This document shows, one piece after another, positions 5,323 through 64,000 of a stretch of 64,000 bases of DNA. Origin of the DNA: Eledone cirrhosa (Eukaryota); assembly GCA_964016885.1 (NCBI GenBank), contig OZ024743.1, forward strand, positions 229,028,001-229,092,000, given 5' to 3'. Under the pieces are notes generated by a model. It searched no databases. It worked only from the letters and a program-made list of their open reading frames with translations, and was not told where the DNA came from. Each line of letters begins with the position of its first letter. Position 1 is the first letter of the stretch. The translations under genes and the position numbers were made by a program.

Positions 5323-8300
5323 TGGCGGGTTTTCTACAGCTGGATGCCCTTCCTAACACCAACCACATTTACAGTGTGGGGCTGGGAGGTTTTTACCGTG
5401 TTGCTTACATGGCCACATTGCAGCGTGGACTGTCTGGTGGGTTTTCTACAGCTGGATGCCCTTCCTAACACCAACCACATTTACAGTGTGGGGCTGGGAG
5501 GTTTTTACCGTGTTGCCTACACGGCCACATTACAGCATGAACTGTGTGTTTTTTTGTCGTGACACCTACACGATCTCATTTGTTTCGGCCTGGATGTTGT
5601 GGCACCAACATAACTTTACATTGAAAGGGGCGTTGTGGATAGGGTGGGGGTGGTGGGACGGGGGTGTATTTTGTTAGAGATGCCTACTGACTGTAGTAGG
5701 TTTTACTTTGTATTTAGGTAAGGCGGGTCTTCTCTATTACTGAGTACCGCCAAAGGTCTCGGTCCAGTGACGTTGTCTTGGTGAGGTGTAAGTGTGTGAG
5801 GTCGGAATTTATCAGCTCGTCCCAGGTCTTTCTGGGTCTGCCTATTCCGTGGCTACCGTCTATCTTTATTGCCCTGCACTTTGTTATACAGCTATCGTCT
5901 TTCATGCGCATCACGTGACCATACCAACGTAGCCTTCTCTCGAGTAAACAACATCTGATCCCTCTTATTTCTAATTTTTTCCTTAGTTCGTTTATGCTTT
6001 GCCGTTCACGTATATTACTATTACACATCCAGCGGAGCATGCAAGCTTCGTTTCTCTCTAGTCTGCGTATATCCTCTGCACACAATGCCCAGGTCTCACT
6101 GCCATGCAACATTGCTGTTCGTATGCAGGCATCATACAACCTGTCTTTCATTTTTAGGGAGAACCCTTTAGCGGCTAATAGTGGTATAAGCTCTCTGAAC
6201 TTTTTCCATCCAGTTCTGACTCTAGCTACTGTACTTTCAGAACACCCGCCCCCACTGCTGATTTTGTCACCCAGGTAACGGAAGCTGTCCACTGTTTCTA
6301 TAGAACCCTCTGCGCAGTTGAAAGAGCTAGTATTTAGTGGGCACTTGCTGCTACTTATTGCACCAGAGCACCGGCCACATATAAAATCTATGTTCTTAGT
6401 TAGCTTACTGTGATCCCACTACATCTTTTATGCACCCATACTTTGCATTTGGGACACAAGATGGAGTTTCTACCTACGCCTTTCCTACACACTGAGCATG
6501 GCCACTTCCCGGAAGGGACCGGCGCCTTATTTTCTTTCTTACAAACTAGAACTTTAGTCTTAGCCAGGATAATTTTAAGGCCTTTTGATTCTAGGCCATG
6601 CTTCCATGTTTGGAATTTCTTCTCTAGCTCGGCCATTGATTCAGCTATGAGTGTTAGGTCATCTGCATATAGGAGTTCCCATGGGCAACCAGTCTTGAAC
6701 TCCTCTGTTATAGCCTGAACGGCAATAATAAATAGTAGGGGTCTGAGAACAGAGCCCTGATGGACGCCAACTTTTACGCTAAACTCTTCACTATATTCGT
6801 TGTTAATTCTAACCTTGCTGACTGTTTCTTTATACATGGCTTGTATAGTTCTCACAAGCCATTCATCAACACCTAGTTTTCTAAGAGCCCACCAGATAAT
6901 GGAACGGGGGACTCTGTCGAAGGTTTTCTCCAAGTCGACGAAAGCTAAGTATAGGGGTTTACTTTTAGCTAGGTACTTCTACTGTAGTTGTCGTACAATG
7001 AAAAGAGCGTATGTGGTACTTTTGCCTGACACAAACCCGAACTGCATTTCATCTAGATCGATTCTCTCTCTGATTAGTTGCGCTATTACTTTTTTCGTGA
7101 TCTTCATGACCTGGTCGATTAATTTAATGCCTCTATAGTTACTCCTATCTAGGGCGTCTCCTTTACCCTTGTAGCAGTTAATGATGATGCTGCTACGCCA
7201 GTCCTTCGGAACAAACCCATTCTGTATGACTTGGTTTACTATCCGGGTGACCATGGTGTGTCCCACCGTTCCAGAGGCTTTCAGCATCTCAGCAACTATT
7301 TCCGAAGGCCCAGCCGCCTTACCCGTCTTCATATCTTTGATTGCCTTACTTATTATACTACCTTCGACTAACACTGATGGTCCCTCTATTGGGTCGATGT
7401 GGGGAGACTGTCTTTCTCCCATTTATTCTCCTCATTTAGTAGCCTTTCGTAGTGACACTTCCAAGCTACCTTCTTATCAGTGTCAGTGATGGCAAGTATG
7501 CCATCATCATTAAGTACACACTTCTCCCCGACAATATCACGGTTTTCCTTGACACATTGCCTAACAATCCTGAACACCTCACGTTTTTGGTCCTCGCGTT
7601 GTAGAACATGCTTAAACTTTCTTTCCTCTGCTTCCCTTTTTGCGAAGTACACCTGTCTCCTAGCTTCCCTCCTGGCCACTTGATAGTCTTCTCTACTTCT
7701 CCCATCCCGCCATACTTTCCAAGCCTGCTTTTTGGCCTTAATTGACTCCTCCACCTTACTGTTCCACCACCATGTTACTCTCCTCCTGCCTACAGGCCTG
7801 CTCCAGCCACAGACATCGTCTGCCGCCATCAGCAGGTTTGCTTTCAGGAATTCCCACTGTTCCTCTATATTGTACGACTCTAATTGCTCTTCCTTACTGT
7901 CAAAAGCATCAAGTAATATGCTTTTAAATTTATTTCTGGCTGTGGGGTCCTTTAGCTTCCATATTTTTCTCCTGAGGATAGTCCTCTTCTGCTGTCAAGT
8001 ACGTCTCGTCCTGACTATGAGGTCGCTAATTATCAGTCTATGTTGGGAGGTGCATTCTTCATGGGGGAGTGATTTAGTGTTTACAACAAACACTCTGTCA
8101 CGTCTTCTGGTAAGGATATAATCTACCTGGCTGGTATGTTCCCCTGATCTGTAGGTGATCAAGTGATTGTCTCGTTTTTTGAAGTTAGTGTTACAGATAG
8201 TTAGGTTATTTGCATCACAGAATTCCAGGATTCTGGAGCCTTCCTCATTTCTACTACCAAACCCATAGCCTCCGTGGATTCCGTCATAGCAGTCACAATG

Positions 8301-9460
8301 TTGACCAACGTGGCCATTTAGGTCGCCAGCAATAATTATATAGTCACTGTCGGTTATTTGGGAGGTAGTGAGCATCAGTGTCTCATAGAATCTGTCTTTT
8401 ATAGCGCCAGGCAGTCCGGATTGGGGCTCGTATGCCGATATTACTGTCACAGTAGTTCTATTTAGAACAAGTCTTATTTTAATTATTCTGTCATTTACTC
8501 TATTTACATCTATTATCTTATCCACCCATTTTTCTGCTAACATGATTCCTACTCCACCTATCCCATTGTCATTTCCCACCCAGAAAAGCTTATAGCAACG
8601 TTTTTTACCCACAATGAATCTAGCAGACCAGCCCCTCCACCTGGTCTCTTGGATACAGCAAACATCAACCGCCTTACGTTCAAGCATTTCTACAACCTCG
8701 TTAGAGCGGCCTTTTAAGGTGCCTACATTTATGGTACCAACTCTGAAGTTTTGGATTGTGTTTGGAGGATGGGGCGCAGGGATGGGTGAGGGGTTGGGGT
8801 TATGTTGGCCATCCGCGGCCGAAACAAAGAGGAGGGGGCCTTGCCCTTTCGTCCGGCAGCATGAGGTGAATTTGTCGTTATCTTTGGCATTGTCATCGAG
8901 TGTCCAGATTCTTCAGACTCTCCAGAAATTCCTTAGTCCATCCATCATATCGAAAAGCAGCCAGAAGTGATAGCATAGGCCGTTGACTTGTGATTGGTCC
9001 AAATAATAAGATGGAGAGTGGGGGCGGGAGGGAGGGGTATGGGGTAGTTAGCAAAGAGAAGATTATTTAGAACAAATGGGGTAGTTAGCGAGAGGTTTTA
9101 AATGAAATCTTCGAATTTTGGGGGGCATAATTGGAGAAGCATATAACAGTAATAATAAGCGAATAATGGGGTTTTAAAATACAAGAAGATTATTTAGAAA
9201 CAACCAGACAGAATTATAGAATAGCATTGAGAGAGAGCAAAGATTGGATTTTGGGCGATAATACGGATATATGAATGAATGGACCGATAGCAAAGAGAAG
9301 ATTATTTAGAACAATATGAATGAATGGACCGATAGGCTGGAGAGAGATGAGAAAAATGGCATTTACATTATACTTCGCAGGGACAAGGTCTGACCATTTT
9401 TAAGCGTTGACAAATTCTGAGATTCGTACCTCGCAACAGGTTTATTTATATTTGGAGACA
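5323..9460 (-). mobile_element. Near full-length RTE-clade non-LTR retrotransposon (decayed)
   Basis: Single APE+RT reading frame, ~500-bp pyrimidine-rich 5' region, and a 3' UTR matching the copy at 49610-49875. The 5' boundary is approximate and the (GAT)n tail is missing. Confidence 0.93.
5714..8948 (-). pseudogene. RTE polyprotein pseudo-ORF (APE endonuclease, reverse transcriptase, internal C4HC3 finger)
   Basis: APE motifs VGTINV, IQETRW, AGDLNGH, VDYIL, SQHRLI; RT motifs NYRGIKL, QFGF, FVDLEKTFDRV, GVHQGS, LLYADD, FRYLG. In-frame ATG at 8948; in-frame stops near 8915, 7995 and 6979; 1-nt deletions near 7405 and 6410 relative to the second copy. Confidence 0.93.
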
Positions 9461-15187: not shown

Positions 15188-15915
15188 CTATCAGAAGAAC
15201 CACCCTACGGGAGGTTTTCTGCTAGCATATATAGTGTGTATATTGATATATGCAAATGTATATGCACATAGATATAATATGTAAATTGATAATATGCACA
15301 TAAACTGAACAAAGACTGTGTTATACTTACTTCTGTAATCAGTAAAGTAATCCATGATATATTAAAAAAGAGAGGCAATAATGGAGATGGAAAAGCGATG
15401 AAATGTTGAGGGAAAATGTTCATGAATCTTCACTTGAGAATGTCGATGGGAAGCTTCAAGCAGTGAATTTGAAAATAGATGCTGCTGGTATGAATGAATG
15501 AATTACATTTACCAATCTCACAGTACACTACCTGATCAATGGCACCAGCAGTTTTGGGCTTGCTATCTTCAGCCATTATCAGCACAACATGGGCATGAGT
15601 GAGGTCTCATTTTCTGCCACTCTATTGCAGCAGAATGACCCACAACTTTTCCTAGAAGATCTTTTTTCATTATGTCATCCATGAGGCTGTCATATTTGAT
15701 CTTGAAGACTCTTGCATAAATATCAGGACGGTCTCTAGGTTCTTCACCAGGTTGCAAACTATTTTTTATTTCATCCCAGTTAGGGTTAGTTGTTACCGTG
15801 ATGAAATAAGATGGCTTTCCCATGTGTCGAACCACAGTCATCGAATTCTGAAAGCACTCACTGTAGAAGCAAGGGGAACCATAGATTGAAGGAGGAAGAA
15901 TAATTCTCCGACCTG
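15188..15915 (-). mobile_element. Internally deleted Helitron: Rep fragment plus 3' terminus
   Basis: 15188-15360 is the reverse complement of the hairpin+CTAG end at 17632-17817 (here ending ATAG|T); a Rep coding remnant lies upstream on the same strand. Confidence 0.8.
15529..15915 (-). pseudogene. Helitron Rep (HUH endonuclease) fragment
   Basis: GRRIILPPSIYGSP..GKPSYFITVTTNPNWDEI..DRPDIYARVFKIK..IEWQK, frameshifted into PHAH: Helitron Rep motifs I and II. Confidence 0.92.
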
Positions 15916-15919
15916 CACT

Positions 15920-16030
15920 TGTTTCAGACGTTAGACAGTGCCCATGCTGGGGTACCACAATTAAAGGATTTTCTTGACCTCAATTCCAGTACATATATTT
16001 TAAAATCTAGTACTTATTTTATTGATCTCT
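15920..16030 (-). mobile_element. Fragment of a third SINE-like family (gtttcag..ccatgctggggcacc)
   Basis: Related pieces at ~34140-34290 (-), 46150-46290 (+), 46320-46490 (+) and 31310-31400 (-). Confidence 0.55.
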
Positions 16031-16891
16031 TCTATTCTCTTTGAAACGTGTGTGTGTGTGTGTCTATGTGTTCATATGTATGATGGTACCCTATCACTTG
16101 CGACGAGGATTCTTCCAGCTAGGTTTCTTAAATGGAGCAGCCTGAAATTAAGGTGAGAATGTCTGAGCATTCCATAGACACCTATAACGGAGGATTTCAG
16201 GGTGGGACTACATTGCTTCTTTGACTTACTGCAGAGTACACTTTTTTTACTTCAGTGGAGAGAATAAAGGCGAAATAAAGTGTCTTGCCCAAGAACACAA
16301 CGCACTGATGGGATTCAAACTCTCAACATTACTATCATGAGACACACACACAGACATAAACGCACACACATATGCACACATACACAGATACAGTAACACA
16401 CATATATACATATATATATACACATAAATACTTATGCACACACACAGATACACACATATACACACACATAAACACACCACACAAATATATATATACATGT
16501 TTGAGTGAGACTATGTACTTATGTAATGGTAAAAAGAATATACACCTGTGGATTGAATCATTGGTACTGTAGTAAATTATCCTTTCCTTATTTCCACATC
16601 TTCACATACATATATACAGCCACATATACAGATAACCACACTATCGTCTATCTTTCTATCTACCTACCTGTATATCTATGTATCGATCTATCGACCTATC
16701 TATCTACTTGCCAACCTACTTATCTATCTACCTCTCACACACACACAAGTATACCTACTCGAGAGAGTGTGTCCATTAGATGTATAATTGCATTTCAAGA
16801 ATTACGAAGTATTTGCAAGTTACTTCATCCAGGGAGGATTAATAATAGCTTCACTAACCTCGGAAGACTATTTGTGCAGTATGTATGTGTG

Positions 16892-17817
16892 TCTATATAT
16901 ATAAATATATTCGCGCATGTACAGTATGGACCGGTCTTCGTGCATGTGCACTTCAGACCAGCCTTCGCGCATGTGCACTCCAGACCAGCCTTCGCGCATG
17001 TGCACTCCAGACCAGCCTTCGCGCATGCGCACTCCAGACCAGCCTTCGCGCATGCGCACTTCAGACCAGCCTTCGCGCATGCGCACTTCAGACCAGCCTT
17101 CGTGCATGCATAGTACGGACCAGCCTCCGCGCATGCGCAGTACGAACCAGCTTTCACACATGCGCAGTATGGAACAGACTTTGCGCATGTGCACTTCGGA
17201 CCAGATTTCGCCTATATATATGTCTATGTATGAATAGATATATTTGTGTGTGTGTCTGCATCAGACATAATTTATATGCTATGACATTTATATATAATGT
17301 AATAGCATATAAATGAGCGTACAACAGAGCTTAATCTAAACTATAATAAAGTAAGAAGCGCGAGACTGTGTACAGTTTATAATTTTTTATCCCCTTAGTA
17401 AAATAAGTTGGATTACTTTGAATAAATAATGAATGAATATTACATAATTTATCTACTAAATTTTGTGGCTGTTCATTAAATAAATTTTATTACTTATTTA
17501 AAGATTCATTTCTTTAAAATTTTCAAATGTCAACACTTCCGGTTAGCGATTGTTTAAATAAACATTCATATATTTCCATCACTAATTTTCTCCTAATGCA
17601 GTTTATATATAATATCGTCTTTTTATAATGTATCATGGATTACGTTACTGATTACATAGGACAGTGTAACACAGTCTTCATTCAATTTCTGTGTATATTG
17701 TCAATTACGGTTTTATTTGATGTATCATATCTACATGCATATATAGTTGCATATAATGTCAATATACACACTACACATGCTAGCAGAAAACCACCCGAAG
17801 GATGGTTTTTCTGCTAG
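16892..17817 (+). mobile_element. Non-autonomous Helitron (~926 bp)
   Basis: 5' TCTATATATATAAA at 16892; 3' hairpin ctagcagaaaacca-cccgaagga-tggtttttctgctag ending CTAG|T at 17817. The base before TC is G rather than the canonical A. Confidence 0.75.
16910..17206. repeat. 27-bp CpG-rich minisatellite, 11 units (consensus ttcgcgcatgYgcactYcagaccagcc)
   Basis: Units counted at 27-bp spacing from 16910 to 17180; they generate the 9-aa repeat ORFs in several frames. Confidence 0.97.
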
Positions 17818-40600: not shown

Positions 40601-40799
40601 ATTATTATTACAATTACAAAGAAGCTGATTACTAAGTAGATACTGACATGAGTGTCTGTTTGAAATTATAAATACAGTAGTGGCATGTGTTGAGCAGGTG
40701 TATGTATGCATACACACACTCAAAGGATATGTGACATGCATGTGTACATATATACATTGATGATGCCGTCTGTGGAACATAATGTTTATGAGAATGTTC

Positions 40800-44581
<3,782 letters not shown>

Positions 44582-47479: not shown

Positions 47480-47864
47480 GCAAAAGTTCTATTTAAATTG
47501 TTGGGATACAACAAGCAAATATTTTTATAACTGATATAAAGCACTCGACAAGTATTTGGAGTAAATATACTATATTAACAAATGGAAACTATATTTATAA
47601 AACCATATTTATTTCATTATACATATTTCAAGGATACCATGTTAAATTATGGTAAAATACAATATATACCAGTTTTATAAATAAACATTGACGTACCCTT
47701 TCAAAATGCAACCGTTACTTTTGCAAGACATCAGGATAGTGGATTTGTTTATTTTAGTAAGTCGTTTTGTTTTTCCTTAACAAAACGACTTACTAAAATA
47801 AACAAATCCACTATCCTGATGTCTTCCAAAAGTAACTGTTGCATTTTGAAAGGGTACGTCAATG
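47480..47864 (-). mobile_element. (TA)n-anchored hammerhead-family element (core deleted) ending in an 86-bp fold-back
   Basis: 47480-47735 aligns with 63503-63775 apart from a 15-nt deletion; inverted arms at 47686-47771 and 47779-47864. Confidence 0.85.
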
Positions 47865-49987
47865 ATAAGAAGGTAGCTTGGAAGTGTCACTACGAAAGGC
47901 TACTAAATGAGGAGAATAAATGGGAGAAAGACAGTCTCCCCCACATCGATCCAATAGAGGAACCAGCAGTGCAAGTTGAAGGTAGTATAATAAGTAAGGT
48001 GATATGAAGACAGGCAGGGCCTTCGGAAATAGTTGCTGAAAGCATCTGGAACAGTGGGACACACTATGGTCACCAGGATAGTAAACCAAGTCATACAGAA
48101 TGGGGTCACTCCGAAGGACTGGCGTAGCAGCATCATCATTAACTGCTACAAGGGTAAAGGAGATGCCCTAGATAGGGGAAACTATAGAGGCATTAAATTA
48201 ATTGACCAGGTCATGAAGGTCACAGAAAAAGTAATAGCGCAACTAATTGGAGAGCGAATTGAACTAGATGAAATGCAGTTGGGTTTGTGTCAGGTAAAAG
48301 TACCACAGACGCTCTTTTCATTTTACGACAACTACAGGAGAAGTACCTAGCAAAAAGTATACTTAGCTTTTGTTGACTTGGAGAAAGCCTTTGACAGAAT
48401 CCCCTGCTCCACTATCTGGTGGGCTCTTAGAAAACTAGGTGTTGATAAATGGCTTGTGAGAACTATACAAGCCATGTATAAAGAAACAGTCAGCAAGGTT
48501 AGAATTAACAACGAATATAGTGAAGAGTTTAGCGTAAAAGATGGTGTTCATCAGGGCTCCGTCCTTAGCCCCCTACTATTTATTATTGCCCTTCAGGCTA
48601 TAACAGAGGAGTTCAAGACCGGCTGCCCATGGGAACTTCTATACGTAGATGATCTAATGCTCATAGCTGAATCAATGGCCGAACTAGAGAAGAAATTCCA
48701 AACATGGAAACATGGCCTAGAATCAAAAGGCCTTAAAATTAACCTGTCTAAGACTAAAGTTCTAGTTTGTAGGAAGGAATATAGGGCACTGGTCCCATCT
48801 GGGAAATGGCCATGCTCAGTGTGTAGGAAAGGAGTAGGCAGAAACTCCATTTTATGTCCCAAATGCAAAGTATGGGTGCATAAAAGATGTAGTGGGATCA
48901 CAGGTAAGCTAACTAAGAATATAGATTTTATATGTGGCCGGTGCTCAGGTGCAATAAGTAGCAGCAAGTGCCCACAGAATACTAGCTCATTCCATTGCAC
49001 AGATGGTTCTATGGAAATAGTGGACACCTTCCGTTACCTGGGTGACAAAATCAGCAGTGGTGGAGGGTGCTCTGAAAGTACAGTAGCTAGAGTTAGAACG
49101 GGATGGAAAAAGTTCAGAGAGCTTATACCACTATTGGCCGCTAAAGGGTTCTCTCTAAAAATGAAAGGCAAGCTGTATGATGCCTATATATGAACAGCAA
49201 TGTTACATGGAAGTGAGACCTGGGCATTGTGTGCAGAGGATATATGCAGACTGGAGAGGAATGAAGCTTGCATGCTCCGTTGGATGTGTAATAGTAATAT
49301 ACATGAATGGCAAAGCATAAATAAACTAAGGGAGAAATTAGGAATAAGAGGGATCAGATGTTGTTTACTCGGGAGAAGACTAAGTTGGTAAGGTCACGTG
49401 ATGCGTATGAAAGACGACAGCTGTATAAAAAAGTGCAGGGTGATAAAAATAGACGGTAGCCACGGAGTAGGCAAACCCAGAAAAACCTGGGACGACTTGA
49501 TAAATTCCAACCTCACACACTTACACCTCTCCAAGACAATATCACTGGACTGAGATCTTTGGCGCTACACAGTAATACAGAAGACCCCCCGCCTTGCCTA
49601 AGTACAAAATGAAACCTACAGTCAGTAGGCACCTCTAACAAAATACACCCCCGTCCCACTACTCCCACCCCACCATACCACCTCTTTCAATGTAAAGTTA
49701 TGTTGGTACCACAACATCCAGGCCAAAACAAATGAGGTAATGTAGGTGTCATGACAAAAAAACACACAGTCCACGCTGTAATGTGGCCGTGTAGGTAACA
49801 CGGTAAAAACCTCCCAGTCCACACTGTAAATGTGGTTGGTGTTAGGAACGGCATCCAGCTGTAGAAAACCCGCCAGACAGTCCTATACGAGCAAGACAAC
49901 CAATCTTGCCTCAAGTGGGAAAATTCCCATCCAAACCCATGCAAGCGTGGAAGATGGACGTTAAACGATGATGATGATGATGATGAT
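47863..49987 (+). mobile_element. 5'-truncated RTE LINE, same family as 5323-9460, with intact 3' UTR and (GAT)n tail
   Basis: Closely similar RT (GVHQGS, YVDD instead of YADD, C4HC3 finger, FRYLG); frameshifts and stops; ends ggacgttaaac(gat)7. Confidence 0.95.
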
Positions 49988-55954: not shown

Positions 55955-58900
55955 ATCTAAGTGAATCAAAACAAAATAGACAAGCAGGATAAAAAATATC
56001 CATGCTAAATTATGTTTAATATTTTGAAAAAGATAAATTGATGGGAAAAGCAAACATTCCTGATTCTGAATATTTCTGAATGAAGAAAAATGACTGCAGT
56101 GAAGAATAGTTGGACAATGTCTCCACAACCAGAAAATAACTCCACCAAAACTTTCCATCCTGTATCCAACACTGACTCCCACCCTGGGCTGTATTATCCA
56201 TAAAGCTAGCTAGGCAAAACCCTAGACGCTCATCAATCTTTTCTTTTTACTGTTGTACTGGTGTGAAATATTGATCTGCCAGAGGAGTCCTAAAATACCT
56301 GAAAGCCTAGTGACCTGGCCATTGATTAATATGACTCTAAGCCCCACATTTTGGTAGGAAAGAAGAGTATATAAGGATTTGATAGTTAAACTGAAAATAA
56401 AGTATTTCATTGAAACACTCAAATGTTGTAAATGGTTTCTGATTTAGACATAAGGGCAGCAGTTTTAGAGGGTGAGGAAACCCAATTATATTAACCCTAA
56501 TACTTCAGTGGTATCTTAATTTCTCAACCTCAGCTGAATTTAAACACAAAATATAACGACCCATAAAAAATGCTACAAAGCATTTTGTCTGATTCTCTAA
56601 CAATTATTCCAATGACCTTCAAATGTCGATATAAAAAAATGAGAGATTAGATAGTCTTCGGAAGTTTAGAAATTTGTCCAAGTTCACTTCTATTAAGCAA
56701 TTTATAAAACATTAAGAACATAGCCACAGAAAATGAAGACAAAGATTCCTTTATATTTCCTGTGAATCTAAGCTTAAATTGTTAATCACCAAATAAGACC
56801 TCTTTAACTATCGCAAAATGGCAATCAACTTCACAACAAAGATTCATCTCTCTCCCTCACCTTCAAACAAAGCAAGTTTGCTATTAACTAATCACTATAC
56901 CAGGAAACTACCAACTCTTAGAATTGACTTCACTGCCAGTTCTATGCCAGCTACCTAAAACATATTGACAAATGACATTATCATAATTTTCATTCTATAG
57001 ATGTTTCATTATTTAGAGAATTGTTAGTGCAGGAAAAACTGTTTGGAATAATTGTTCCAGCTCTTTGCATTCTGAATTTAATTCCTCCTGGGGTCGATAA
57101 AATAAAGTACTTATCAAATACAGGGGTCAATTTATATTTGACTTCCATTTCTCAGAAATTATTAGCTTTGCATATACATTAGAAAGCAACAGTCAAAAAA
57201 CTAATATATAGTCATGAATAAGAGTCAAACTTGGTCTACAGAAACAACCTTCTTTTAATCAAGAGGCCTTTGTATTCTTTTTGATACCAAACCACATAAA
57301 ACAGCCCTTAGTTCTATGATACTAGAGTGTTTGTTTTGAAATGTTCATACTTATATTAAAACCTTCTATCATGTACGAGTTTTTATTGTGAAGAAGTATT
57401 CCAAATATCAGCTGACCAATAAAAACAAAGTTAATGCGCTTGACATTTTTGATTATTTTAAAAATCAATTAAAACAAATTGTCATTTGAAATATGATAAA
57501 AGATGGTCTTCTTTACAAGAGGAATATACTGGTTAAAACCAAAGGAATTTTTGGAAAAGAAAAGAAGAATGCCTTTGAGACTATTCAAAATATGAATGAT
57601 ATGCCTCAGATTTGCATATGTAAATAATACAAAAAAAATATATATATTGCTTTATGCAGATGTATGTGTGTCTAGTTTATTTGGGGTTGGTGGTAGTGTT
57701 ATATAAAAGAGACAAACACACAATTTTCTTTGCAGTCACTAATAGCAGTTCTTCGAAAAATATCTTCCACAGAAAATTCTTTTCTGCAATCATCATTATC
57801 ATTTAATGTCATTGATGATGATGATGATTGTAATCCATTAATAATATGCGAATTTGAAACTGGTGTAGACTTGAATTTTTTAGCTACTCAATTGAATTGT
57901 GAAAATGGAAAGTGTCCTTGTTCCAGGAATAATATTTGAATATTTCACTAGAATTTTAAAAAACCAAATCTTTACCAAGTTGATATATGAATTCAGAATG
58001 GATATATGGCATTGGAAGTAATATAAATTAATAATAATATCTATCAAAATTTTCATTTGTAAAGAGGACAAGGTGGAAGTGGGGAAATGGTCTTTCTAAA
58101 TTGAAATTTTTCAATATAATAGAATTAGTATTTTATTTTGTTACAGTTTTCTGCAGCCATTATATTTACTATGGTAATAAACTAAACATTTGGCAATTTC
58201 AGACATATCTAGCTTACAATTCAGTCGCTCAATGTAACTTTTATTTTCATAAAAATATCAAAATAATTTCTGAGATTGGCATGAAACTTGCATAAAATAT
58301 ATTTAACAATAATAATAAAATTAAAAATAGTAAAGCTAACATTACAATAAAAATAACAGACACTAATATAACAGCAACAGCATTAAAAATAATAATAATC
58401 TAAAACAATAACAAATAAGTTTCTATGAATTTTCTAATATTTCAAAAATGCAAAATAGAAAATAAAAATGTTCTTCTATATTCAGAATTACTGTTTTACT
58501 TATGTGTTTAATTTATGAGTTATTCTTTGAAATAAACAACCACACACATACATACATACATACATACATTCATATATATATATATATAAAGGCTTTAGTG
58601 AACGTACATCTGGAATTTTTTTTTTTAGGTAAAAATCTTTTATCCTTATTTATATTCTCAGATGATGTTAACTATACATTAATGCTAGTGTTATTTTTTC
58701 TGCTACTTCAACAGCAAAGTAATACACACTGCACAATTACACAAATGTTTCAATATATGGAATATTATGCAGTTAATGTTTGCATTTCTCAAATCAGTAA
58801 AGTAATGAAGTTGAATTGATATACACAGCAAATGAAGGAATAGATTTTCAGTTCTTAAATGGAAGCTTCTTGTGGGCTTGAGCAAGTTATTTAACTTTAA

Positions 58901-60867
58901 CACTCTCAGGTAATTTAGCTGGAAATATAAGCATTAATCTACCAAAGAACAGATGCAATGATGCATTATTTCCAAGAAACTCGACGTAGAGGATTATAAT
59001 CTTTAAAATTTAATATTATAAAACTATGTGACCAAAATGACAAGTGAATATTTCCTGAAATACATCAAGGACATATTAAATATTTCCAAGGTATCATTTC
59101 AATGCCTTGTTTATTGTTATTTTTAATATTTAATGTTCTATTTGCATTGCTATAACCTTCAAAAAATTGTTTCCTATAATTTTGTTTATAACATTATTTT
59201 GTGACTGTGGCAAGAGGGTTAAAGTACTCGATATACAAGATGGCCAACTGAATACATGTGTCTTTTTTCTCCACAAATTCTTGTCATTTTCCCCACTCCT
59301 TTTTCTCATCACTCTTTACTTTCCTCTTCTATTTCTAACTCTATCTTGAAGAACTAGTGTCCGATCGGTTAAGACTCTCTTGCTTCTATTTCAAGCATTA
59401 AACTAATCTATTTCTTTCATGTACTGTGCTGTTTGTTTTGTTATTTCTGTTTACCATTTACATATATATACATACATATACTTATATATATATAGCATCA
59501 TAGCACCCTACTGTGATGGATTTTATTCAAGGCAAGAACATTAATGTCAAAATCTTTCATCAATATTTTATGTTTGCTTTCCATGCCTGTATAGGTTGTC
59601 ATAGTCTAAGACTAGACAAGTCAGAGATACCTTATCTTGCTCATATCTTCCATATTCAGCATGGCTTCTACAGCTGGATGTTTTTTCTAAGCCTAACCAC
59701 TCCACAGAGTATATTGGGTGCTTTTTATTGGGACACCAGCATGACCATTTTAGTGTAGTGGGGGCATTTTTCATAGCACTCGCACTAAAGAAGTTGTCCT
59801 ATACTACACAATCCTCTTTACCCTACATTTGAGAAAATAGATTAAAATGTTTGTCCGCTAAGGTTGGGGTTTGTTTTTGACACTCAGAATTAATTATAAT
59901 GCTTGCTAATGCAGGGCCAGAAAAGGAGAGGATTAAAAATAGTGAAGTTATTCTCTAACTAGAAAATACACTGTTAACTAAGCTCCAGTTATCTGACAAT
60001 GTTTACAGAGCCATTTGCTTTAATCAAATTAGCAACATCCAATTACATTACTAATTTATTTAGAAGAAAAATTGGCATTGCAAATACATTTTTGAAGGCT
60101 TTAAGATTGAGTCAAGTCTTGAATAATAAATTTCTTCAAAATCATTGACACATAACAGAGCTGTGGGCCATCAATTCCAAATCTTCAAGGTTTATTATAA
60201 TGAAGTAAAATTTAAGATGCATGTTTGCATGTGTATGCCCCCCACTCTCTCCCTCTCTATCTATCTATCTCTGAAGGAGTCTTGATTGCTAACTATACAA
60301 GAGATATTTGGTTCAATCATGGCTCCAGCTTTATCAATTTTGTTTTTCAAACCATGCTGTATGTATGTTTGTATGTATGTATAAGTATGTACTATTGAAT
60401 ATTAAGTGAATGGTGGGTGTGCATGGTGGAATACTCTGTGAATAGATATATACAGTCTTCATTCCTTTCGAGTAAGCAGGACAGAGAGCGTGATTTGAAG
60501 AAGTGCAATGAACAATTGTTGAAAGTGTATGATCAGAGTGTAAAGGGGAAGAACAAAGTAATGGGTTTGTAGGGAGATTCAGTAGAGTAATTGGATTGGG
60601 TAGCTACAGAGCAACATTCTAATAGAAATTTGTGCAATAGGAGAGAATGAGTAATCACTATTACAAAGAAGATAGAGAAAATTGGTATTGATATATAATA
60701 GTGTGTGTGTGTGTGTGAGTCCCAGGTTCAGTTGGGGGTAACCACAGTTAGTAAGGTCCTCAATACATTAGTAGAGTGTAAATATCAAGTTTAATAACTA
60801 GTTCTAGTCCTGTGAAAGCTATTTCTATATTATACTTTATACATACACATATATATATATATATAAA

Positions 60868-61200
60868 TCAAAATTGACACAGTAAAAACCTGTGAGACCA
60901 TTACTCACCAGAATACTCGATACTTGGGGTAGAAGAGTGTGGTAATATGAAAGAGTCAGGACTCTGACAGGTGAGCTCTTGCCATTTCAACAGCTAGTTC
61001 TAAAATTGCTGTTGAAATGGCAAGAGCTCAGCCGTTCATATATATATATATGAAAGATTTTCTACTCTGCGGATGAGCTGTTGCAGTTTTGACAGTAAGC
61101 AGGTAATGAATGAGTAAGAGCTCAGCTTCTTCATTATAATACCTACACTCCACTTTCTTAAGCATCGAGTACTAAGCTGAATAGTGGTCTTACTAGTCAT
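60868..61200. mobile_element. Two oppositely oriented fragments of a (TA)n-associated element, with a 23-bp perfect hairpin
   Basis: 60893-60965 is a diverged reverse complement of ~61117-61191; perfect arms 60972-60994 and 61008-61030; hammerhead-like remnants. Confidence 0.65.
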
Positions 61201-61219
61201 AACTTGTAGCACCTCATCC

Positions 61220-61252
<33 letters not shown>

Positions 61253-61312
61253 AAATATTAAAAAAATAAGGAATAAAACAATGAAACAGTTCCTTATATT
61301 AAACAAAAAAAG

Positions 61313-61465
61313 TTCATTATTTAACGATCGTTTCTAGGACATATATGTGTTAGAAATGGCATGCATATTCAACAGATCTATGTACAAAATTATACAAAAT
61401 TATACAAATTATCAAATAGAATATACATACCAACACATACATATGCCGTCTTCAGAAATAATGAA
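61313..61465 (-). ncRNA. Type I hammerhead ribozyme motif with a long stem II insert
   Basis: Minus: UUCAUUAUUU-CUGAAGA-(stem II cggcauauguauguguu / aacacauauauguccua)-GAAA-CGAUCG-UU-AAAUAAUGAA. Stem I is a perfect 10 bp; stem III is palindromic; the predicted cut follows GUU (61323/61322). The base of stem II is imperfect. Confidence 0.8.
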
Positions 61466-61709
61466 ATATATTTATTGATAATAACAACAATTCAAAATTA
61501 CAGGTCTGTTTGGGAGCAGAGTTCAAATAGACCAATGAAATACATAAAAATATATCAAGAAAATACAGTTAGGTGTGTGTATATATGTAAGTAATTTCGT
61601 TCACAGATATGCATAAAAATATATGTTCACATGCATACGCATGTCGAAAAGATGTATGTAAATACAAACATTCAGGGCTAATGTCTCTGTATGTTTATAA
61701 TCTAGACAA

Positions 61710-61812
61710 AATACACATACGTATATAAACTTATATACACTCATATATACACACATATACATACATTCATACACACGCACGCATATACACATAAACCTAC
61801 ACATACCCACGA

Positions 61813-61852
<40 letters not shown>

Positions 61853-62086
61853 GTATATATTATTATTATAACTATATGGATATTAAGGCGCACACATAAA
61901 CACTGCCACATATATTTACATCTAGATGCAGAACTAAAGTAGGTAAAGGGATTCAGTAATTACTGAGGGTGTCAGACAACAGCCTGTTTATAAATGTATC
62001 TATAAATTTAGAAATAAAAAGAAATATATTAAAAAGAAATAAACAAGTAAAATATATACTCATACATAAAATACACACCGATAAAC

Positions 62087-62134
<48 letters not shown>

Positions 62135-62542
62135 ATATATAGAGACACATACATATACATATATAAATACATAGACACACATCCATACACACATATATAT
62201 ATATACATATACTTACAACACACATATATATATACACATATATGTACATACACATACACACATACATACATATACATATATATATACACACATATATATA
62301 CATACATATATACACACACATATACATATACATACACGCACATATACATACACACACACACATACATATACGTATATATACATACACATACACATATCCA
62401 TGTATATATATACACATACAACCACACGCTCACACACAACTCAGACATACATAAATAAAGAGATATACATACAAACATATATATATATAGATATATACAT
62501 ACACATAAATATATATACACACACACACACACACATACACAT

Positions 62543-62605
<63 letters not shown>

Positions 62606-62756
62606 TAAATAAATACACAGTCAGACAATTATGCACATATATACACATACATACACACATCTCTACAAATATACATACACATACATACACACATATATAT
62701 ATATATATATACACATATATATATATAGACATATATATATATATGTATATACATAC

Positions 62757-62801
<45 letters not shown>

Positions 62802-62900
62802 CATACACACTTATTTACATGCGTACATATGTATTTTTATACTCACATACAAACACCCAAACATACATACATACTTACATACACATACATACATCCACGC
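61710..62900. repeat. Compound (TA)/(CA)/(TACA) low-complexity region
   Basis: Direct reading; source of the Y/I/V/C/M-rich spurious ORFs. Confidence 0.92.
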
Positions 62901-62954
62901 TTACAAATACGAATAATTATAGGGGGGGGGGGGATTAAAATTATTAGTGGGAAA

Positions 62955-63450
62955 TAGTAAATATAGGTTTCAAGGAACATAGAATATTAATCTGCATTTA
63001 GATCATAATATGTGTTTACATAGTAGTTTCAGTATTAGGAAATGTAAGAAAGAAGGCAAAATTATGCATTTTAATATAAGTAGACTATTAATTATAGGTT
63101 AACTAAATTAAAATTAGTTAATATATTGATTTCTAAGGTGTATACTACTTAGGTTTATAATATTTAAAGCAGAATTTTGAAGTTAAACAGTAGTAGAGTA
63201 TTAATTATAGCATAACTAAATTAAAAATATTAACATTATGGTATCAATTTTAGGAAATGAATTTAGTAATAGGGAAAACCAAATCAAGTATTTCATCGGT
63301 AGTAGAATATAAATTATAGGTTAACTAAATTAAAAATTATATATTAATTTCTATAGTATATGTTAATTAGGTTTATAATAATTAAAGCAGATTTTGTATT
63401 TTATCTATAGTAGAATATAATTATAGGTTAACAAAAATTAAAATTAATAT
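62955..63450. repeat. AT-rich ~110-bp tandem repeat, 4-5 units alternating between two types
   Basis: agtaga.tat.aattatagg/cttaactaaattaaaa recurs at ~63079, 63192, 63301 and 63408. Confidence 0.8.
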
Positions 63451-63468
63451 ATATATATATGATTTATC

Positions 63469-63502
<34 letters not shown>

Positions 63503-63506
<4 letters not shown>

Positions 63507-63791
63507 AAAGTTCTATTTAAAATTGTTGGGATACAACAAGTAAATATTTTTATAACTGATATAAAGCACTTGACAAGTATTTGGAGTAGATATACGATAT
63601 TAATAAATGGAAACTATATTTATAAAACCATATTTATTTCATTATACATATTTCAGGGATACCAAATTAAATTATGGTATGCCTTCATCAGACAAAATAC
63701 AATATATAACAGTTTTACAAATAAGCTTTGACGTACCCTATTAAAATGCAACCATTGTTTTTGGAAGCCATCCGGATGACTTTCAAAAACA
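63503..63791 (-). mobile_element. (TA)n-flanked hammerhead-carrying element ending in a short fold-back
   Basis: TA tracts on both sides; paralog at 47480; terminal palindrome 63756-63791 (16/18 pairs). Confidence 0.85.
63635..63699 (-). ncRNA. Compact type I hammerhead ribozyme motif
   Basis: Minus: UAUUUUGU-CUGAUGA-AGGCAUACCA-uaauuuaauu-UGGUAUCCCU-GAAA-UAUGUA-UA-AUGAAAUA. Stem I is 8 bp (2 GU), stem II 9/10 bp, stem III short and near-palindromic; the predicted cut follows AUA (63643/63642). Confidence 0.8.
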
Positions 63792-63828
63792 TAAATATAT
63801 ATATATATAAATATATATATATATAAAT

Positions 63829-63865
<37 letters not shown>

Positions 63866-63868
63866 AAT

Positions 63869-63899
<31 letters not shown>

Positions 63900-63938
63900 A
63901 ATATATATAAATATATATAAATATATATAAATATAAAT

Positions 63939-63969
<31 letters not shown>

Positions 63970-64000
63970 AATATATATATATGTAAATATATATATATAT
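63792..64000. repeat. (TA)n array with AAA interruptions, running to the window end
   Basis: Direct reading. Confidence 0.97.

Follow-up and report, generated by a model that had tools for sequence, protein, structure and literature searches.

A putative type I hammerhead ribozyme with a rod-like stem II in a high-copy repeat of Eledone cirrhosa, and candidate A-to-G editing at its catalytic junction

The stretch of DNA analysed here (the window) comprises 64,000 nucleotides of Eledone cirrhosa (GenBank assembly GCA_964016885.1, contig OZ024743.1, positions 229,028,001 to 229,092,000 of the forward strand). It is AT-rich and full of microsatellites and fragments of long interspersed nuclear elements (LINEs). 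A type I hammerhead ribozyme motif was located by a descriptor on its minus strand at 61313-61465, with the core boxes in the ordinary type I order. The repeat that carries the motif adjoins a (TA)n tract with its 3' end (61252), about 70 nt from the predicted cut site, in the manner of Penelope-like elements (PLEs) of the Hydra clade, which insert in (TA)n. The features of the repeat, in window positions and all on the minus strand, were as follows.

61466..61710, minus: upstream body of the repeat, scarcer among copies; contigs bridge 61513-61594; 5' end not found
61456..61465, minus: stem I, 5' strand; 10 Watson-Crick pairs with 61322-61313, in register, formed at a mean probability of 0.86-0.88 when the motif is folded alone
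61449..61455, minus: core box C3-A9 (CUGAAGA), from the sequence
61335..61448, minus: stem II domain, 114 nt separating the core boxes, from the sequence and a ViennaRNA fold
61445..61448, minus: stem II base, 5' side; C10.1 (facing A11.1), G or A at 10.2, G, and the C of a C·C mismatch
61419..61444, minus: stem II rod, 5' arm (12 + 14 bp), from the fold; G·U/A-U interchange across the family
61371..61418, minus: 48-nt AU-rich tip of short tandem units, variable in number; weak fold; 9- and 10-nt deletions in some reads
61339..61370, minus: stem II rod, 3' arm, with a 6-nt bulge at 61356-61351; candidate edited A at 61342, 61344 and 61356 (and 61340)
61335..61338, minus: stem II base, 3' side; A11.1 at 61335, opposite C10.1
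61331..61334, minus: core box G12-A15.1 (GAAA), from the sequence
61324..61331, minus: stem III; 2 bp and a 4-nt loop in the monomer, an 8-bp palindromic helix in the dimer
61323, minus: U17, as H17, next to U16.1 (61324) in a GUU triplet; predicted cut on its 3' side
61313..61322, minus: stem I, 3' strand; 10 Watson-Crick pairs; family variants at 61317 and 61318 retain U·G pairs
61255..61312, minus: 3' tail ending at the (TA)n tract; nearly repeats the stem I 5' strand twice, at 61285-61276 and 61273-61264

Architecture of the motif

The core boxes (CUGAAGA at 61455-61449, GAAA at 61334-61331) and the perfect 10-bp stem I (61465-61456 with 61322-61313, all Watson-Crick) had been proposed in a first-pass annotation of the DNA and were recovered as described. 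The cut site named there is also supported as a prediction: because U17 of the GUU triplet is 61323, cleavage is expected at 61323/61322. Besides the two boxes, U16.1 and H17 were present, and three helices surround the core, with stem I open. Positions 10.1 and 11.1, paired in the canonical form, are C·A here, which makes the motif a natural-variant form. The descriptor search of the window gave two matches, this motif and one at 63691. With at least 10 Watson-Crick pairs in stem I, no match was obtained in 150 block-wise dinucleotide shuffles of the window, and one was obtained when at least 8 pairs and a stem II were required. Rfam gave nothing in the 64-kb window at the gathering threshold, and none of its 66 matches at E<=10 in 58000-64000 was to a hammerhead family.

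The insert between the boxes had been described as a loop II of about 80 nt. This was not borne out: the boxes are separated by 114 nt, which ViennaRNA folded into a 4-nt base, 12 bp, a 6-nt 3' bulge and a further 14 bp, capped by a 48-nt tip of weak structure. Pair probabilities in the 12-bp segment were 0.94-1.0, and the whole motif region folded at -46.5 kcal/mol (z -4.83; none of 200 shuffles was equally stable). Read in register, the stem II base consists of C·A (10.1/11.1), G·U, G-C and C·C. Near the tip of the rod, a second short palindrome was observed (61380-61371, minus strand; 6 nt here and about 10 nt in the loose-end consensus of another subfamily), which is a possible second dimer contact.

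Small PLE hammerheads that cleave as dimers have reportedly been described by Lunse, Weinberg and Breaker. In the present motif, AACGAUCGUU (61332-61323) is self-complementary, with a duplex energy of -11.8 kcal/mol, and to this extent the palindromic stem III of the earlier annotation stood. Its outer pair did not: A14-U17 joins two core bases, is lost in GUA copies and is not part of helix III, which is properly the 8-nt ACGAUCGU. The pair probability of stem III in the monomer was 0.24. Two copies folded together reached -104.4 kcal/mol against -89.6 for two monomers, a gain of 14.8 kcal/mol through the palindrome. This agrees with the dimer model of PMC4209133 and supports, at the level of computed folds, the dimeric folding that had been raised as a possibility.

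The 3' tail may compete with stem I. With the family letter at 61270, its second near-copy of the stem I 5' strand (61273-61264) becomes exact. When transcript growth was computed, the mean stem I probability fell from 0.88 to 0.03 once the transcript reached or passed 61282, and from 0.43 to 0.02 when more upstream sequence was included; in the tail-containing folds there is partial pairing between the core boxes. The folds are suggestive of a tail that captures the stem I 3' strand after transcription, and the predicted cleavage window would be about 30 nt of transcription after completion of stem I. No twin ACTC/GAGT tail stem was seen by eye in 61255-61312.

The repeat family and its A-to-G changes

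Reads and contigs were aligned to 61255-61710 and 61296-61482. Runs X1-X3 represent one sample, and the small-share runs compared were X4 and X7. Among 19 runs none was listed as an RNA holder of the sequence, which says nothing about expression. Family tallies are unphased per-position variants rather than an alignment, with variants listed at >=3% in X1 or X18, and summed contig depth was not taken as copy count. The family was represented by 1263-1287 contigs in each of X1-X3, 6229 reads in X17 and 3179 reads in X18, and was also present in a second organism (B, 26 contigs). We infer thousands of copies, a figure that was not counted.

By elimination from the per-kind tallies, no change reached 3% in X1 at G5, A6, N7, G8, A9, A11.1, G12, A13, A14, A15.1 and G16.2, while C3, U4, C10.1, C15.2, U16.1 and the C·C could carry up to three X1 variants beyond those listed. 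H17 is U or A across the family (A in 27% of X1 depth and 30% of X18 reads), and position 10.2 (61447) is A in 29% (X1) to 54% (X18). The C·A and C·C non-pairs had no variant among those listed in the DNA runs. Seventeen paired positions had a listed variant at >=3%: ten keep the pair by exchange between A-U and G·U, two (61339/61444 and 61370/61419) are compensatory if the changes are linked, phase not being visible, and five (61465, 61435, 61433, 61432 and 61427) break it. Four of these five are helix-terminal or close to the bulge, where the 3' arm of a second subfamily differs. That subfamily has a different yet complementary 3' arm and appears as loose ends behind 61350 (548 and 432 reads). 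In one subfamily, homology stops at 61313, the end of stem I, where 321 of 1528 molecules in X18 end. The core was unchanged across subfamilies with differing flanks and stem II arms, and in the second organism. Conservation of CUGAAGA/GAAA and of the stems across the family, on which the first-pass annotation had made its proposal depend, is thus supported by the X1 and X18 tallies, unphased and, for the core, by elimination.

Four positions of the motif, 61340, 61356, 61409 and 61440, none of them in the core, are all that separates this copy from the X1 majority; it is a near-typical family member rather than a decayed one. The long insert, the GUU triplet and the imperfect stem II base had earlier been taken as signs that this copy may be inactive; the rod is family-wide, and the GUU and the non-pair have precedents (see below). 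If this copy is inactive, the weak stem II base, competing tail and editing that belong to the family design are a more likely cause than decay. That it cleaves measurably in some form has about an even chance.

Summed depth, about 9e5 at 61287-61334, drops towards the 5' end of the repeat and is 5e3-3e4 past 61525. Three-frame translation of 61240-61760 gave no convincing open reading frame, no reverse transcriptase (RT) or GIY-YIG coding partner and no endonuclease end, and the copy may be 5'-truncated or non-coding; faint peptide resemblances in this region were rejected, as T-rich DNA gives hydrophobic codons. The window holds no second copy of the repeat, and no head-to-tail joint within 61255-61710 (456 bp) was found in four runs, where a longer monomer would not show one. 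The tandem 150-450 bp monomers of retrozymes were accordingly not seen, the copy being single in the window and no joint falling within 456 bp. As neither a coding partner nor a tandem copy was found, membership of the Hydra clade of PLEs or of the retrozymes would be putative only. By resemblance, the family is nevertheless quite probably PLE-linked. Fold-back joints at 61420/21 and 61462 were observed in both restriction-site-associated DNA (RAD) runs (3-5 reads each; library chimeras are possible), and organism B had one fold-back loose end. Piles of RAD read starts at 61360/61363 and 61640/61643 were rejected as RNA ends or as a measure of copy number, because they lie on a palindromic restriction-type site.

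Run X7 is small (88 million letters of contigs), comes from the same species and study as X1 and is probably RNA, its type being unrecorded. Five listed changes were present in X7 and below 1% in both X1 and X18, and all were A>G on the ribozyme strand. As shares of summed contig depth rather than of reads, and among the changes listed, these were 24.8% at A15.1 (61331; 29 contigs; 0.0006% in X1, 3 of 2328 reads in X18), 21.8% at A11.1 (61335; 28 contigs; 0.0006% in X1, 1 of 2320 reads in X18), 25.4% at 61342 (24 contigs), 9.9% at 61344 (11 contigs) and 38.5% at 61356 (20 contigs), the last being absent from X1 (0 of 305,688 depth). Two further positions shifted likewise: 61317 (24.7% in X7, 3.3% and 5.4% in X1 and X18) and 61340 (A in 60% in X7, against 85%). 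The opposite strand had A>G at 7 places, compared with 6 and 9, and so showed no matching rise, and none of the five changes was shown by the contigs of organism B. The pattern contrasts with X1, X18 and X4, DNA that may be of other individuals. In the tail-containing folds A11.1 was 36-73% and A15.1 52-70% paired, in each case more than in the motif folded alone, and editing of the inactive rod would accordingly suit the pattern. The X7 changes are likely to be real ADAR editing; that such editing is a selected switch is unlikely.

Proposed mechanism and alternative explanations

The reading that we favour, with somewhat better than even confidence, places a type I hammerhead motif, its oversized stem II forming a rod, close to the 3' terminus of a high-copy repeat that is likely a PLE-like retroelement or its non-coding parasite; the motif would cleave weakly and co-transcriptionally with the help of dimers and would then be silenced by refolding and editing. 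Inosine at position 15.1 shifts specificity to C16.1. During transcription, weak transient cleavage at 61323/61322 would be aided by the pairing of two copies. Once made, the 3' tail would, according to the computed folds, take the stem I 3' strand from its partner, while the core boxes would partly pair and lengthen the rod. ADAR may then edit the rod, including A15.1 and A11.1. Self-folding repeats are heavily edited, a lizard Penelope among them, and the octopus rate is very high (PMC5625713). Editing of A15.1 would silence the core, judging from published mutagenesis in which activity fell by more than 100-fold (PMC4075628) or by 10-fold or more (PMC3088659) on mutation of A15.1, in passages that do not treat inosine itself; because activity drops when A15.1 is changed, editing would on balance most likely silence the ribozyme. 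The cut may define the RNA end that a Penelope-type reverse transcriptase would copy into (TA)n tracts, as PLE biology suggests.

Several results weigh against this reading. For this copy, ViennaRNA preferred a slipped GG/CC register at the stem II base, and the computed probability of the catalytic secondary structure was 0.009 even for the isolated motif; both argue against strong activity. No tertiary contact between loop I and loop II was evident by eye, stem I being uninterrupted and stem II having no loop nearby. The tail hairpin was equalled in 31 of 1000 shuffles, which is moderately unusual, and the tail evidence is therefore suggestive only. With neither a coding partner nor a 5' end found, the link to PLEs is by resemblance, and the invariance of the core can result from recent amplification of a few master copies. 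Concerning editing, the X7 shares are of summed depth, nine X7 variants lie beyond those listed, and the mix of copies in X7 differs from that in the other runs (61364, 52% against 1.7% and 7.5%; 61323, 6% against 27% and 30%; 61318 also). A low-depth DNA contig of X1 (depth 4.45; spanning 61255-61458; 23-26 differences) has A>G at A15.1, A11.1 and 61344, and is possibly a genomic retrocopy of edited RNA. None of the X7 A>G sites has a 5' G, the neighbour avoided by ADAR (PMC5625713); with 6-7 sites this pattern does not reach significance (a 5' G precedes 4 of the 24 adenosines). Finally, X7 contigs span the cut site, and for this reason uncut or re-joined molecules would be common if X7 is RNA.

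A chance match in an AT-rich inverted repeat would suit the AT-rich, microsatellite-laden region and the lack of an Rfam match, but is refuted by the shuffles (0/150) and the conservation across the family; the second hammerhead in the window, unlike in sequence yet sharing the stem II C·C, also speaks against it. It retains practically no probability, and 61313-61465 almost certainly belongs to a real hammerhead family. Such a family could be catalytically dead and passively carried, as the weak stem III, the two non-pairs at the stem II base, the competing folds and the poor in vitro cleavage of minimal metazoan PLE hammerheads (PMC4209133) would allow. The constancy of the core across subfamilies with differing flanks and stem II arms and in the second organism, and an H17 that varies only between the allowed U and A, make a vestigial ribozyme improbable. 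A retrozyme unit, in which the hammerheads of a tandem array would release non-coding monomers for circularisation and copying by a PLE enzyme, would be a compatible sub-case of the favoured mechanism with a solo copy here. It accords with the high copy number, the absence of a clear frame in three-frame translation, the rod-like fold and the X7 contigs, which cross the cut site as a circle junction would; with no second copy in the window and no joint within 61255-61710 in the four runs (a longer monomer would escape), it can be entertained only tentatively.

The X7 changes could alternatively be DNA differences of one or a few over-represented loci, which would leave the hammerhead an ordinary long-stem PLE variant. 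The unrecorded type of X7, its different subfamily mix and the X1 contig with three of the changes are in keeping with this; one locus, however, predicts few contigs, equal fractions and all kinds of change, whereas 11-29 contigs per site, fractions of 10%-39% and only A>G were seen, and the change at 61356 was wholly absent from X1. We regard this explanation as unlikely. Less probable still is editing as an on-switch, in which the invariant C10.1·A11.1 would hold activity low until the long stem II attracts ADAR, whose conversion of A11.1 to inosine closes the stem II base. The C·A has no listed DNA variant whereas nearby pairs vary, 22% of X7 depth carries the change at A11.1, only 15.1-16.1 surpasses 10.1-11.1 in pair conservation (PMC3088659), and with A11.1 read as G the probability of this pair rose from 0 to 0.76 and the in-register base was restored. 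Yet A15.1 is changed equally often (25%), which would cancel the gain if the edits co-occur; the catalytic fold with G11.1 is no more probable (0.007 against 0.009), and G overstates the pairing of inosine; C10.1-I11.1 would invert the usual G-C; the hammerhead of the algal PLE-X1_cBra has a C·A base naturally (PMC8557442); and broad editing of repeat rods is ordinary (PMC5625713). An editing-gated ribozyme, with stem II as the ADAR landing rod, inosine at A11.1 turning cleavage on and at A15.1 off, and a host enzyme timing the cut, is likewise doubtful; if true, it would also account for the block that PMC7229834 postulates to act in vivo on the hammerheads of animal retroelements.

Surrounding elements and comparison with known systems

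Other features of the window were the following.

63635..63699, minus: second type I hammerhead (CUGAUGA, AUA site, near-palindromic stem III), from the descriptor match at 63691; 9 of 10 stem II positions paired
about 63505..63795: element of about 290 bp with the second hammerhead, between (TA)n tracts; fold-back hairpin at its 5' end
47481..47870: 87%-identical copy of the 63505-63795 element; 15 nt lost, including the CUGAUGA box; tail with an ACTC-hairpin-GAGT stem
5714..8912 and 48031..49590: two inverted, about 91% identical, broken LINE copies (APE endonuclease/RT)
62960..63470: degenerate AT-rich tandem repeat with a period of about 110 bp
16856..17238: 27-bp minisatellite, at least 10 units
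40790..44460: irregular (TA)n tract, 3.7 kb

The stem II base of the second hammerhead is A-U, G-C, G-C and C·C, the position-4 C·C being common to the two otherwise unlike motifs. In the copy at 47481-47870, a longer inverted 5' part adjoins a LINE fragment. At 60880-61220, two diverged, oppositely oriented repeat ends surround a (TA)n tract, both with ACTC...GAGT tail stems; one has a strong fold-back hairpin at about 60960-61040 (-61 kcal/mol for 60880-61040) and the other a decayed hammerhead-like core, and they are likely to be further Penelope-type ends. An open frame at 15569-15979 on the minus strand resembles, by eye, what we take to be a Helitron helicase-like domain.

The closest counterparts are the PLE hammerheads of the Hydra clade (Craig et al. 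2021, PMC8557442), elements that insert in (TA)n. The present motif shares with them the type I form near the 3' end, the (TA)n target, GUU, unpaired 10.1/11.1 and a palindromic stem III. Among the 25 Hydra-clade elements counted in File S2 of that paper, 10 cut after GUU, 15 have a 10.1/11.1 non-pair (14 U·U and one U·C), and the core boxes are at most about 26 nt apart, against 114 nt here; the motif differs further in C·A instead of U·U, the C·C at position 4, a perfect 8-nt palindrome and the absence of a coding partner. In the same file, the algal element with the C·A base also has an 8-nt palindrome, and GUU is listed among active sites in PMC3138052; a measured cleavage rate for GUU was not found in the literature search. 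In view of the 25 Hydra-clade motifs, GUU and the stem-base oddities are precedented, while the length of stem II is not.

With the metazoan PLE hammerheads that are minimal or have a small palindromic helix III (Cervera and de la Pena 2014, PMC4209133), the motif shares a dimer-suited palindromic helix III, an enlarged helix II, mostly solo dispersed copies and low expected activity. Theirs have a helix II of 6-8 bp, conserved G10.1-C11.1 and a short helix I, in contrast to the 26-bp rod and 10-bp helix I here. The metazoan non-LTR (long terminal repeat) retrozymes (PMC7229834; Li et al. 2026, 10.64898/2026.07.22.740005) are similarly non-coding, AT-rich, high-copy and type I, with a 2-bp stem III and tetraloop. 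Unlike them, no tandem arrangement was found here within the window or the 456 bp, and self-pairing of the tail is predicted to block the ribozyme, which according to the paper is not so in most metazoan retrozymes. Clustered A>G changes in a self-folding repeat are shared with ADAR hyper-editing of repeat double-stranded RNA (Porath et al. 2017, PMC5625713); in the available parts of that study no edits were placed on a ribozyme, whereas here they fall on A15.1 and A11.1.

In the accessible literature on ADAR or inosine with hammerheads, retrozymes and retrotransposons (subscription papers and bioRxiv supplements being outside reach), only engineered editing-sensing ribozymes were found, and no natural hammerhead edited at its core. 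No literature on hammerheads with a long stem II was found, although the supplements of PMC4209133, PMC7229834 and the bioRxiv preprints may hold longer stems, and metagenome pattern scans for the motif gave 0 loci. Among PLE hammerheads there is nothing unusual in the palindrome, GUU or the mismatch at the stem base; what is new is the candidate editing at the catalytic junction. The 114-nt stem II domain also represents a hammerhead class missed by Rfam.

PLE-associated hammerheads are known, and their role is unsettled. According to the Discussion of Cervera and de la Pena (2020, PMC7229834), animal retrozyme hammerheads must be blocked in vivo by something besides self-pairing. The present family offers two testable candidates for a block, capture by the tail and A>G changes at A15.1 and A11.1, and the candidate junction editing is worth following because the in-vivo block on animal retroelement hammerheads would become directly testable.
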